The notes beneath the pieces were generated by a model that worked only from the letters and a program-made list of their open reading frames with translations, searched no databases and had not been told where the DNA came from. A stretch of DNA of 64,000 nt from Octopus vulgaris (lineage: Eukaryota), in contig OX597815.1 in NCBI GenBank assembly GCA_951406725.2, forward strand, positions 15,872,001-15,936,000. The letters run 5' to 3'. Below, one piece after another: positions 28,121-43,497 of this stretch. How positions within the stretch are numbered: position 1 is the first letter of the stretch; each line of letters opens with the position of its first letter. The position numbers and the translations under genes are program-made.

Positions 28121-28555
28121 ATGATGGCTGCCACCTCGTTATCGAGTATGGCCATTGCACGAAGTTTAACTGTTATCGGTGCTGTGATCGAATGTAACTT
28201 TTTAGCCCAGCTAAAGATCTACAATGTCTTGTACAAAATTGGCAGCTAAAACCTTTACTGGTAATAGCCGGCTGTAGTTGTAACTGGGCTTCATGTACCT
28301 TTGCATGTCGTTTAAGTCCTCTTGCCAAATTACACTCTCTTCCACATGCCTGACAGATATGATTAGTATGGTGTGTTACACCACCACCAGTGGCCAGGCT
28401 ATCACTCATCTGTCTCGTTTTATGACTACGAAGATGACTCTTGAGTCCAGCTTTACTGAGGCAGGGTCTTGCACAGACATTGCATGTCAGCATCATAGGG
28501 AGACCCTTCCCATCTGGAAGTGTAACAGTGATGCCCTTCCTGACATCCCTCCTGA
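28121..28555 (-). mobile_element. 5'-truncated RTE-type LINE 3' end encoding three C2H2-like zinc fingers
   Basis: ORF 28173-28586 contains CNVCARPCLSKAGLKSHLRSH, CQACGRECNLARGLKRHAKVH and CQFCTRHCRSLAGLKSYIRSQH. A short 3' UTR is shared with 25361, and (TATG)n flanks both sides. Confidence 0.7.
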
Positions 28556-28847
28556 CATACATACATACATACATACATACATACATACATACGTATGTGC
28601 GTGTGTGTGCGCCTCTTTACCGACCACCAAACATAATTTAAGTAGCTGCTACGGACAAAGTGAATGCATCTAATCATGTCTGTCCACAAACGTATTTCCT
28701 ACATTTTTTTTTTTTTATTTCTTGAAACTGAATTTGTTTTCCTTTCAAAACACTATAGCAGAGAGCATACGCAAAGGAAATCATAATTCCAGTGATGTCA
28801 TAAAGAATTGCGTCAGAACTTGGAACGCTGGAACTTTCAAAGAACCC

Positions 28848-29038: not shown

Positions 29039-29141
29039 GTCACGTGACCTTTCTTTTCAACCAATAATATCTTTGATCTGGCAGATCACGTGCTACATCT
29101 ACCTTATATAAAACACGACATTCGGCGAGTTACTTCATAGT
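29039..29141 (+). promoter_or_regulatory. Core promoter of the protamine gene (two E-boxes, CCAAT, TATA, Inr)
   Basis: GTCACGTGAC 29039-29048, CCAAT 29061-29065, CACGTG 29087-29092, TATAAAA 29107-29113, and Inr-like TCA(+1)TAGT with the A at 29137, 30 nt from the TATA T. Confidence 0.75.
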
Positions 29142-29236
29142 CGTACCGATTTTCAATCTTGCTCTAACTTTCGCTGCAATAGAGAGAGAGAGGGGTGAGA
29201 CACTTTCGGAAGCCTTGAGTGACGACAGACACAAGG

Positions 29237-29551
29237 ATGATTGTTAAAGAAAACGCATCGCGTTCGAGGACGCGTAGAGCAATACGCCCATCCATGAGCC
29301 GGCAGAGTCTGCTGGTCGGTGGCGGAAGACGAGAGCGCAGTTTATCCAGTGTGAGAAGTCATGGTAGTTTTAACGGAGGCAGATTAAGTCGTAGACGAGT
29401 GTATTCCATTGGTGGACGACGGCGACGACGACGGCGACGATCGAGAGGAAGAAGGGGGAGGAGGAGAGGACGAAGGAGGGGGCGAAGGAGGGGACGAAGG
29501 AGGGGGAGAAGGCGAAGACGAAGGAGGGGCGGCCGAAGGAGGCGACGATGA
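29237..29551 (+). CDS. Sperm protamine precursor (Octopus Po1/Po2-type), intronless, 104 aa
   Basis: MIVKENASRSRTRRAIRPSMSRQSLLVGGGRRERSLSSVRSHGSFNGG-RLSRRRVYSIGG-R8SRGRRG(RRRG)4R7GGR5*. Mixed Arg codons (CGA/CGG/AGA/AGG/CGT) argue against a microsatellite. TATA lies upstream and AATAAA downstream. The leader-GG-polyArg layout matches cuttlefish spermatid protein T, and the last 56/44 aa agree with my recollection of O. vulgaris Po1/Po2 (to be verified). The first ATG is 29237; the ORF track starts at an upstream GTG. Confidence 0.92.
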   Translation: MIVKENASRSRTRRAIRPSMSRQSLLVGGGRRERSLSSVRSHGSFNGGRLSRRRVYSIGGRRRRRRRRSRGRRGRRRGRRRGRRRGRRRGRRRRRRRGGRRRRR

Positions 29552-29711
29552 AGACGACAGAAGTGAATTAGAAACTATTTTCTATAAAAATAGTTCTCGG
29601 TTGGCTTTTGCGACTTCACAAAAATGAGACAATTTAACATCTCTAGGACTTTCGCTTCTTAAGTTGGCCATTATTGCTTACCGCACGTGGAATTAAGAAT
29701 ATAAGACGATT

Positions 29712-29750
29712 AATAAAAATGTTTCCGAAAATTTGTTTTGTCTTTATTGT
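29712..29750 (+). terminator. Polyadenylation signal of the protamine gene
   Basis: AATAAA at 29712-29717, followed by the T/GT-rich TTTGTTTTGTCTTT. Confidence 0.7.
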
Positions 29751-29994
29751 TTGGGCTGAACTGCGTGGGTCGCTTAATTCAAAGGTTGAAAATATTCAAA
29801 GGTTGAAAACAAAACTCCCATCAATGAAAAACTAAGTTGATTTAACAGCAAGGAAAGTTTGGAAGAATAAATCAACTCTCGACATAGCCACAAGTTCGTT
29901 CAAGTTCAACAAAATCGGAACTAAAGGAACTGGTAAGAGAAATGCAAGATTCAGTTTTGAATCCTGGCTTAGAATCAAGGAACTTCTGACCTCA

Positions 29995-31694: not shown

Positions 31695-34132
31695 TCCGGC
31701 TAATTGGCAAGGCGCAGACATGCGCCGGCGCCTTGCTGACCAGGTCGATACACGATAATCTCCATCTCATGCGCTACATCATAGAGAGGGTGGGTAACGA
31801 CGCTGGCGCGGATGGGGCTTTGATCAATTTAGATCAGAGTAAAGCCTTCGATAGGGTCGACCATCGATACTTGGCAGCTGTTCTCAAGGCAGCCGGTTTC
31901 GGTCCAGTCTCCCGCGGGTGGATCGCTGCTTTATACAGCAACGTCTGCTCAGTGATACGGGTGAACGGTCACCTTTCGGAGCCGTTTGACATCTCGCGTT
32001 CGGTCCGCCAAGGATGCCCTCTCTCCTCCTCCTTGTATGTATTGACTCTCGAGCCATCTTGGAGGCTTTGAGGGGTATCCCGCGCGATCTAGGAGGTGGA
32101 AACAGCGTGTCTGCCTATGCCGAGACGACGCCACCGTGATGGTGTCGAGCCACAGGCACATTGACCTGATCGGCGAGACGCTAAACGAGTACGAAGCGGT
32201 AACAGGGGCAAAAATTAATGCGGAAAAGTCCGTGGGCTTGCAACTGAGCACCTGGAGAGGCAAGTCCATGCCGTCAAACAGCCTCGTAGGCGCTGGACAG
32301 ACGGACCCGTTAAACTGCTCGGGGTCTGGTTCGGCCCAGACCTCCAGGTGGATAAAAACTGGGAAGAAGTGACAAGCAGGGTGGCCAATCTCACCCAGAA
32401 ATGGGCCGAGAGGAAGCTGTCCCTGAAAGGTCGAAGCGGTAACGGGGGCAAAAATTAATGCGGAAAAGTCCGTGGGCTTGCAACTGAGCACCTGGAGAGG
32501 CAAGTCCATGCCGTCAAACAGCGTCGTAAGGCGCTGGACAGACGGACCCGTTAAACTGCTCGGGGTCTGGTTCGGCCCAGACCTCCAGGTGGATAAAAAC
32601 TGGGAAGAAGTGACGAGCAGTGTGGATAAAAACTGGGAAGAAGTGACGAGCAATGTGGCCAATCTCACCCAGAAATGGACCGAGAGGAAGCTGTCCCTGA
32701 AAGGTCGAGCGGAGGTGGCGAATGCGTACATCGCATCCGTCATCTATTACCGATTGACCGTCGTCCCTTGTCCCGACCGCTGGTTGGCCAAGCTGGTGCG
32801 CCTGCTCTTTGACTTTTTGTGGAAGGGTCAGGTACCACTGGTCAGGTGATCCATCTGCTGTCAACGGCCGCTGAACGGAGGCCTTGGCATGCCGTCGTTA
32901 CTGATGCGCAAACATGCGCTCAGGCTACGGCATCTCAAGTGTTTCCTAGACGGTGAACAGGTGTGGTCGTCTTTTGTCAGACGCGACTTTCCGCAGCTTG
33001 TCTCTTTGACAGAGCTGCAAACCTGGATCAAACGCAGACCGAGAAAGGGCGCTTGGCACCTCGAGTACCGTCAAGCTCTCTCCGCCCTCCACCAAGCGGG
33101 CAATGCGATCGGTAGTAGTTCCACTCTTGCGTTCTATAGAGGGTTAGTGGAATAAAATTGCGACGACGTTCTCGGGGAAATTCTAGGCGTTGACGATATC
33201 GAGTTGAGCGGTCTGTTCTGAAGGACTTTCGGGCTGGGGCTAATGGATAATTTCCAGAGGCCGCTCACCTAGCAGTGCTACCGAGGGGCACTGCCTGTTC
33301 GGGATAAACTCTACCGACACGAAAGTGCCGTCAGCCGGACCTGCTCGAGGTGCTGCCAGGACGACGAAACCGTTCTGCACGCACTCGTCCAGTGTCCGAG
33401 TATTGCTGAACTATGGGTTTATGTCGAACAGCTACTGTCGTGTATAGGATGGATCCGGCTATCAGCTGAATCCATAGTGAAGATTGCTCCGCCGACCTCC
33501 TTTAACCAGGAGGGCAAGGCAGTTTTCCTTTGCCTAGTGGCTGTAGCGAAAGAGGTGGTATGGTGGACCCGTTTGAAAGGGCTAAGGCCAGACACTTTCC
33601 TCTTTGGCCCAGGCCTCATCAACTTTTTTAAGTTTCATTTGAAAAGGAAGGTGAGAGTAGAGAGGGAAGTGCTGTCTGATAGCAAGTTTACTGAAAGGTG
33701 GATAAATGTCGTAAGAATGGCCAGTATGAAAGGACCCATTCTGAGAATACACCTGTAAGAAAAAGGTATTACAAAAGGCGAAAGGGGCTCTCTACACGCC
33801 CCCCCCCCCTTTTGACCAGGCTCCCGTGGCTTTTATGGGTTTTTCTACTAGGAACCTAGGCGAAAGGGGCTCTCTACACCCCCCCCCCCTTTTGACCAGG
33901 CTCCCGTGGCTTTTATGGGTTTTTCTACTAGGAACCTTTCGAAGCACCTCCCCCTATTGGGAGTTTTTCATTGTTAAATATTTTCGTTGTTATACTGTTT
34001 TTTACACGGATTTTCAAACGGACAAAACCCTTTGTAACTTTCGTCCTGTGTTTTAGTCCCTTATGTTATAATTAATTTTGTCAGCCCTTGTGGCCAATAA
34101 AAGAATTAGTTATTATTATTATTATTGTTATT
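31695..34132 (+). mobile_element. 5'-truncated Tx1/L1-clade LINE (RT, zf-RVT, 3' UTR), pseudogenised
   Basis: LINLDQSKAFDRVDH, SVRQGCPLS, disrupted YADD at about 32116, KINAEKS, LSLKGRA, GGLGMP and CSRC..ETVLHALVQC. Stop at 33758, AATAAA at 34096 and a (TTA)n tail. Confidence 0.92.
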
Positions 34133-42609: not shown

Positions 42610-43497
42610 TTTAAATGATAAACTTCTGGAAAGTTTTATAGATTTTTACAGTTCCAGTGATGGATTGAATCTGTAGTCTTCAAATTAGCTTTCTCCTTTC
42701 TGGTTTTGAGAAGCCTAATTTCTCAAGATTGGTATTTAGGCAGCGTGTTACATATCTCAGAACCCCAATAATTACAGGTATAAACCTGAACTTGTAATCT
42801 GGATAGAGTAACTGCAGATTTCTCAATAGTTCAGTATAGGTGTTCTCTTTTTCACTGATGTATGTATGTATGTATGTATGTATGTATGTTTTGTTTTCTG
42901 TATGTCTTCTCAAGGATATACTTGCATGTCTAGACATGCTCATATATACTTAAATGATCAACTTCTGGAAAGTTTTACAGATTTTTACAGTTCCAGTGAT
43001 GGCTTGGATCTGTAGTCCTTGAACCAGCTTTCTCCATTCCTAATTTCTCAAGATTAGTATTTAGGCAGTGTGTTACATATCCCAGTATCCCAATAATTAC
43101 AGGTACAAACCTGAACTTGTAATCTGGATAGTAACAGCAAATTTCTCAATAGTTCAGCAAAGGTATTTTCTTTTCCACTGATCTTCAGCTTTATGATAAC
43201 ATCTGCTGGGCAGCTGATTTCCACAACTGTACTCAGTTTCTCTTCTCTATCCCAAATCATTATGTCAGGTCTATTGTGTTTACATTTTACTGAGGTTTTC
43301 GCTAAGACATTCCATGAGTACTCCTTTTTATTATGAGTGGCTATGGCTTCCACCATACTGTGGGTTCTTATTTCTTTGTCCTTGGGGTTATCCTTCTGAC
43401 AAATTTCATTATATAGTATCCTAGCTACGACATCGTGTCTCATCTGTAGATTACCATGATGACATTTTTGGGCAACTGTTTGTGATGCAGATGATAT
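42610..43497 (-). mobile_element. Two tandem 3' ends of an R4/Dong-type LINE
   Basis: RHDVVARILY..KHNRPDIMIWDREEK..VEISCPAD..KENTFAELLRNL (RHD motif and PD..E RLE) at 42955-43497. A second copy KENTYTELLRNLQLLYPDYKF lies at 42610-42860. Confidence 0.85.

Follow-up and report, generated by a model that had tools for sequence, protein, structure and literature searches.

Cuttlefish protein T carries one short leader, which is removed by a single cut after Gly-Gly (GG). The mammalian protamine 2 precursor is Cys/His-rich; we know of no repeated GG motif in it and of no GG rule for the trimming of the mouse protein, and to our knowledge a protamine-processing enzyme has never been named. The sperm protamines of Octopus vulgaris, Po1 and Po2, were reportedly described by Gimenez-Bonafe et al. 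in 2004 as chains of 56 and 44 residues.

Excerpts of PMC12216123, PMC3073880 and PMC11607694 describe precursors of cuttlefish T1/T2 and squid Sp1/Sp2 from which an N-terminal leader is removed, leaving 79-80% Arg. Passages of PMC12216123 present N-terminal processing of protamine precursors as widespread among vertebrates and among invertebrates such as squid, and parts of PMC9273070 report trimming in mammals, insects and molluscs. In the mouse, the N-terminal domain of protamine 2 is removed in sequence once the protein is on DNA (sections of PMC9273070 and PMC9258737), and mice that lack the cleaved domain are infertile (section of PMC9273070). Sequential protamine cleavage in several groups is mentioned in an excerpt of PMC13251019. 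Because multi-step trimming is already known (PMC9273070, PMC13251019), serial processing is not in itself novel. The word "protease" is absent from the two mammalian papers (PMC9273070, PMC9258737). Our literature search, whose reach took in few of the cephalopod papers of 1991-2011 and few older journals, returned no proposal of GG-directed processing of a cephalopod protamine and no link between Gly-Gly proteases and protamine maturation.

A probable octopus protamine precursor and its glycine joints

We analysed a 64,000-nucleotide stretch of O. vulgaris DNA (the window), in which a 104-codon open reading frame almost certainly belongs to a protamine precursor gene (Table 1). The sequence-only reading of this DNA had described such a frame, segmented at three GG|R joints, and had predicted products of 56 and 44 residues with rising Arg richness; both descriptions were reproduced by our translation. 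Arg makes up 47.1% of the full chain and would make up 58.1, 69.6 and 79.5% of predicted products of 74, 56 and 44 residues, respectively. Po1 and Po2, at 56 and 44 residues, have the lengths expected of products cut at sites 2 and 3, and each would begin after GG; the gene described here adds 48 residues before the 56-mer. The 44-mer and the 56-mer have masses of 6.0 and 7.4 kDa and clustered Arg, and excerpts of PMC11607694 give 3-10 kDa, very high Arg content and clustered Arg as protamine criteria. The calculated average masses, without modifications, are 12,698 Da for residues 1-104, 9,458 or 9,401 Da for a chain beginning at residue 30 or 31, 7,430 Da for the 56-mer and 6,028 Da for the 44-mer; cleavage at the GG inside the 44-mer would give 5,247 Da.

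Residues 30, 48 and 60 each close a Gly run, and Arg is the next residue every time. The first run closes the motif LLVGGG (residues 25-30, positions 29309-29326), and the P1' codons after the second and third begin at 29381 and 29417. Seven of the eight Gly in residues 1-60 lie inside GG or GGG runs, every one of which is followed by Arg. When residues 1-61 were shuffled 200,000 times, at least three GGR appeared in 0.024% of the shuffles (p=2.4e-4) and at least three GG in 1.3%, figures that are optimistic in that the motif was picked post hoc. These counts support the view that GG|R segments the leader in a non-random way; to call a joint a "cut" is our interpretation of the letters. Comparison of P4-P3 gave no consensus beyond GG|R, these positions being VG or LV at site 1, FN at site 2 and SI at site 3. 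Sites 1 and 3 read G|RR, and site 2 reads G|RL. The 60-residue leader also holds 14 Ser/Thr/Tyr and seven RS/SR dipeptides, and the 44-mer contains a fourth GG|R that was absent from the earlier list.

Table 1. Coordinates of features at the protamine locus (window positions) and of protease and element sequences elsewhere in the genome (contig positions).
Feature	Position	Strand	Basis or remark
CRE-like site TGATGTCA	28793..28800	+	pattern match; possible spermatid promoter element
Two CACGTG E-boxes (29041, 29087) and CCAAT box (29061)	29041..29092	+	pattern match only
TATA box TATATAA	29105..29111	+	pattern match; upstream of contig starts
Likely single-exon transcript	29150..29731	+	contigs of X1, X9, X10, X13
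104-codon protamine precursor ORF	29237..29551	+	standard-code translation
Leader segment 1, aa 1-30	29237..29326	+	composition: 20% Arg, 5 Ser
Met20, sole other in-frame ATG	29294..29296	+	Glu in X9 orthologue
Candidate site 1, GGG	29318..29326	+	P1' ambiguous, Gly30 or Arg31
Leader segment 2, aa 31-48	29327..29380	+	composition: 22% Arg, 5 Ser
Candidate site 2, GG	29375..29380	+	would yield 56-mer
Segment 3, aa 49-60	29381..29416	+	composition: 33% Arg
Candidate site 3, GG	29411..29416	+	would yield 44-mer
44-aa arginine domain, R/G/S only	29417..29548	+	79.5% Arg; likely mature protamine
Fourth GG, aa 98-99, RRRR before	29528..29533	+	within 44-aa domain
AATAAA poly(A) signal	29712..29717	+	pattern match; near contig ends
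Single degraded Polinton/Maverick-like element	C2:139508800-139517300		
SENP1/2 paralogue, two coding exons	C5:128162159-128163316 and 128180705-128183242		
Ordinary intron-containing SENP1/2 gene	C9:47847307-47854295	-	likely parent of paralogue

Relatives of the precursor were sought in several collections. Exact protein look-ups returned none of six forms (the 104-residue chain and its 85-, 75-, 74-, 56- and 44-residue versions), Pfam gave no match, and word-seeded homology searches confirmed 0 of 42 candidates and 0 of 8000 scored. Neither phmmer over 1.84 billion representatives (0 matches) nor metagenome contigs (0 of 603 pattern matches confirmed) yielded a relative. The absence of the 56- and 44-mers from the exact look-up and the homology search concerns low-complexity queries, and these blank protein searches are uninformative because the protamine is short and of low complexity. 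Two look-alikes by composition in the ESM Atlas (0.79 each, CotG/ExsB) were dismissed as low-complexity noise. Supplements on O. maya testis held no match for the protamine or for SENP. Within the genome, the 56-mer matched only itself and, at E=0.8, a single further stretch that contains a stop, no other Arg-rich frame was found in the window or 10 kb to either side, and a GG-RRRRR codon pattern gave 1112 matches, swamped by microsatellites.

On the minus strand of the window, a frame at 28173-28586, which lies about 650 bases before the protamine start codon, encodes three C2H2-like Cys/His motifs and resembles the end of a LINE-type ORF. A 264-codon stop-free frame with an internal duplication (31949-32743, minus strand) is probably a retroelement fragment; GC content is 0.51-0.56 over 32001-34000, the GC-rich stretch of this frame. 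A further frame ends at 43054-43300 (minus strand) in a sequence that resembles the nuclease region found in non-LTR retroelements of the R2/R4 type.

Transcript, start codon and orthologues

The protamine stretch or part of it is present in 20 of the 24 listed runs, four of which were mapped (X1, X9, X10 and X13, representing four organisms, their RNA status being a guess). Four runs of the same label without protamine words are uninformative. Contigs begin at 29150-29181 in all four mapped runs, 45-76 bases past the first base of the TATA box, and end at 29731 in X1, 29709 in X9 and 29720 in X10. In X9, a single contig covers 29156-29709 with no intron-type joint. Bounded by a TATA box and an AATAAA signal and free of introns, the contigs therefore have the shape of a single-exon mRNA. 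A single copy of the leader sequence is present in the genome (2.8 Gb in 227 contigs). The gene is single-copy, has no introns and, going by the contig bounds and the guessed RNA status of the runs, is apparently transcribed. Depth reaches 25,000 in X13, whose contigs also include an unrelated repeat piece at 29876-29957; expression was not ranked by depth. CRE sites occur in protamine promoters, and one CRE-like site lies upstream of this gene.

A scan of the sequence between the TATA box and 29237 found no ATG, and the only in-frame ATGs of the frame are codons 1 and 20, both upstream of all three sites. Met20 is replaced by Glu in X9, where codon 1 is untouched by the listed differences; this replacement was seen in one contig, with a 3-base gap nearby that could distort the alignment. 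The loss of Met20 favours Met1 as the start, and we consider it very probable that translation begins there. A start at Met20 was judged unlikely on the same substitution, and one near residue 49 was rejected since no in-frame ATG occurs there. The sequence-only reading had proposed that Po1 is itself an intermediate of a longer precursor with an extra leader. Its upstream translation start holds up, probably at Met1, but its use of site 1 and its cuts after GG do not gain from these data. That the mature ends follow GG at sites 2 and 3 we regard as likely, and use of site 1 is slightly favoured.

The orthologues that we compared are from close relatives. The differences listed comprise all 31 substitutions in X9 and all differences over the three joints in X13; 5 of 12 substitutions in X10 and 23 gap rows across the runs fall outside them. 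The joint Gly codons are unchanged at all three joints in X9 and X13, while among the listed differences 9 of the 53 other leader residues are changed across runs. The contrast between 0 of 7 Gly and 9 of 53 other residues is not significant (p=0.30), and the leader has a pN/pS of about 0.6, on 11 changes. Conservation of the GG joints, which had been anticipated, is thus seen as unchanged Gly (0 of 7 in X9 and X13) but not as special constraint (p=0.30). Site 2 has Phe at P4 in this species; X10 and X13 have Leu at that position, and there the site reads L-N-G-G; R49 and L50 show no change among the listed differences. The arginine domain varies in length: X10 has 36 bases in place of 84 (29437-29522), an in-frame loss of 16 codons. 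A reading of this X10 joint as an intron was rejected, as its ends are CG..GA and 36 letters are substituted.

An acidic SENP1/2 paralogue

The sequence-only reading had named a SENP/ULP protease of the testis as one possible enzyme. Contig C5 gave the sole match of a genome-wide search for the C48 family. This open frame of 877 codons scores 134 bits against Pfam Peptidase_C48 (cut-off 20.7) and 213 bits against human SENP1; human SENP1/2 are also its closest relatives among solved structures. Annotations list the gene as uncharacterised, under LOC115212363 for O. sinensis and LOC106871249 for O. bimaculoides, and the O. sinensis protein, 1232 residues long, is 99% identical. Its whole C48 domain lies in the second coding exon, which holds the 877-codon frame, whereas the domain of the ordinary C9 gene, 42-51% identical to it, is spread over at least five blocks; the C5 domain therefore looks retroposed. 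Some Logan proteins are only 45-47% identical to it over their whole length but 88% identical within the C48 domain, and we infer that these proteins come from more distant cephalopods. In a tree of 21 rows, the seven paralogue rows form one clade (100/100) on a stem of 0.96. This pattern would fit a burst of change followed by strong constraint.

The alignment shows that the His, Asp and Cys of the triad, the oxyanion Gln and both tunnel Trp are intact in the paralogue. According to excerpts of PMC4281951, the Trp tunnel of SENP proteases takes Gly-Gly, so that GG|X is read, and in SENP2 the leaving tail contacts a hydrophobic surface made up of Trp410, Val477, Met497 and Gly545 (excerpts of PMC11587528). 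The spacing of these SENP2 positions (67/20/48) was reproduced on bird SENP2. The positions of Val477, Met497 and Gly545 carry Asn, Tyr and Met/Leu in all nine paralogue sequences; of 112 other SENP1/2 that could be parsed, none has even one of these residues. The comparison set consisted of the 117 best-scoring of 446 matches, 481-1532 residues long and not a random sample, and the 112 are those parsed among these 117.

The paralogue is also set apart by its charge. Its three leaving-side loops have a net of five acids, against at most three in the 112 parsed others (of the best 117 of 446), and its domain has a net charge of -7 to -10, against +5.6 +/- 3.9 in the best 117 of 446 SENP1/2, none of which falls below -3. 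In full-length paralogues, Asp and Glu fill 27-28 of 30 residues in one tract, a count that peaks at 23 in the best 117 of 446 others. The C48 domain of the paralogue is followed by a tail of 434-456 residues (at most five in the same 117). Two residues are inserted ahead of the catalytic His, and the C5 protein has a Lys-rich N-terminus; the first Glu of the His loop is common to the ordinary C9 gene. The tail has no known family and no match in the ESM Atlas, and an accession search of the literature found no paper citing the paralogue. A complex prediction for the paralogue domain with protamine residues 20-66 scored 0.00, which we count neither way.

An acidic protease of this kind is what a releaser of an Arg-rich product might look like. 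The tie to the protamine is circumstantial, consisting of charge complementarity and lineage. The paralogue keeps the stretches FR, WLNDE and RRWTK, which we take to be SUMO contacts, and SENP1/2 normally require a folded SUMO domain; the paralogue is therefore also compatible with being a SUMO isopeptidase for basic substrates. The suggestion of a SENP/ULP has acquired a concrete but circumstantial candidate, an acidic paralogue with an intact triad; that it is the protamine-trimming enzyme we consider less likely than not.

Candidate enzymes and known systems

Our preferred reading, which we put forward tentatively, is that the protamine precursor is made from Met1 and that a di-glycine cysteine protease of the host trims it after GG, the paralogue being the leading candidate. 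Its broader element, that a host enzyme specific for GG cuts the precursor, comes close to being evenly balanced. Under the preferred reading, the precursor would enter spermatid nuclei, where its arginine domain would bind DNA while a phosphorylated Ser-rich leader might damp charge and packing. Cleavage near residues 30, 48 and 60 would tighten the chromatin stepwise as the Arg content climbs from 47 to 80%. The Trp tunnel of the paralogue would take Gly-Gly and its acidic leaving-side loops would accept the Arg-rich product. The fourth GG, we propose, would escape cleavage by being bound to DNA and by having Arg at P3-P6. The weakest points are the presumed mature N-termini, P4-P3 positions that share no consensus and a fourth GG that must be skipped.

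The common Arg at P1' invites another explanation, in which an enzyme of the nardilysin type (N-arginine dibasic convertase) cleaves before Arg and GG is a flexible spacer. Nardilysin is abundant in spermatids, and two G|RR joints with no P4-P3 consensus are what such an enzyme would leave. Site 2, however, is not dibasic, its R49 and L50 carry no listed change, the leader has dibasic pairs without GG (residues 13-14 and 52-54), and an enzyme of this kind should attack the arginine domain too; we think it unlikely. To a similar degree we doubt that general nuclear proteolysis erodes the DNA-free leader and pauses at DNA-protected Arg clusters behind GG hinges. Every GG does stand directly before a more basic block, the conservation of GG falls short of significance, and mouse protamine 2 is trimmed via several intermediates (excerpts of PMC9273070). 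Against this, three GG|R joints are improbable by chance, and a basic block in the leader (residues 9-17) has no preceding GG.

A rival that partly overlaps the preferred reading assigns the cuts to some other host di-glycine protease (USP, UCH, OTU or an ordinary SENP), with the paralogue acting on an unrelated SUMO substrate. Ubiquitin and SUMO proteases all read GG|X, and the SUMO contacts that the paralogue probably retains would suit a role elsewhere. For SENP, the GG|X reading is described in excerpts of PMC4281951. These proteases, however, likewise need a folded ubiquitin-like domain, and the net basic domains of ordinary SENP1/2 fit an Arg-rich product poorly, so we rate this rival somewhat below the previous two.

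The adenain motif is (M/I/L)xGG|X. The sequence-only reading had also offered a domesticated Polinton/Maverick protease of the adenain type, which would mature the protamine as adenain does pVII. Adenain removes the propeptide of pVII (excerpts of PMC3829898) and is related to SENP (excerpts of PMC4281951), a Polinton-like relic exists in the genome, and site 2 reads L-N-G-G in two orthologues. Yet in this species the motif is matched by site 1 alone, provided that the cut precedes Gly30; at site 2 it is matched in X10 and X13 only, and at site 3 (S-I-G-G) it is not matched. Genome searches returned 0 of 12 candidates for adenain (PF00770) and 0 of 1 for the protein-primed polymerase, both weak blanks since the controls were silent, and 0 of 22 for the A32 ATPase. 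The sole double-jelly-roll capsid match (C2, 139.5 Mb) has four stops. Beside it lies a stretch that we take to be protease-like by its motifs, with Pfam and PDB giving no match; it is broken up among three reading frames, and two pieces of it each match only themselves in the genome; other short frames of the relic presumably derive from the element. With no intact adenain found, one broken relic and one of three sites fitting, we set the domesticated protease aside as very improbable, and the parallel with adenain and pVII may be taken as an analogy.

Our boldest reading, which we consider rather unlikely, is that coleoids evolved a dedicated protamine maturase from a retroposed SUMO protease. 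The paralogue would have traded a hydrophobic leaving-side surface for an acidic one, and would now cut a linear substrate unlike ubiquitin after GG and so condense sperm chromatin stepwise. One substrate with three candidate bonds and one candidate enzyme place the question within reach of a single in vitro assay. If the boldest reading is true, a protamine-processing enzyme would have a name, and a cellular SENP would have arrived by convergence at the role of adenain in adenovirus cores. Cleavage in the assay would also show a cellular SENP at work on a substrate without a ubiquitin-like fold, which is rare. A negative outcome would still leave an octopus protamine gene with its whole precursor, and an unusual, uncharacterised SENP paralogue.

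Set beside the known systems, what may be new here is the pairing of defined candidate GG bonds with a named candidate enzyme, a retroposed-type acidic SENP1/2 paralogue. Cuttlefish and squid remove a short leader by one cut, whereas the octopus leader has 60 residues and three GG joints. Stepwise N-terminal trimming is shared between protamine 2 and the octopus model, although no search indicated homology. The paralogue resembles SENP1 and SENP2, of clan CE and family C48, in its triad, oxyanion Gln and Trp tunnel but differs in its internal acidic domain, its long tail and three swapped leaving-side residues. Adenovirus pVII is also a basic DNA-condensing protein matured by removal of a propeptide (excerpts of PMC3829898), and adenain, its protease, belongs to the same clan as SENP (excerpts of PMC4281951).
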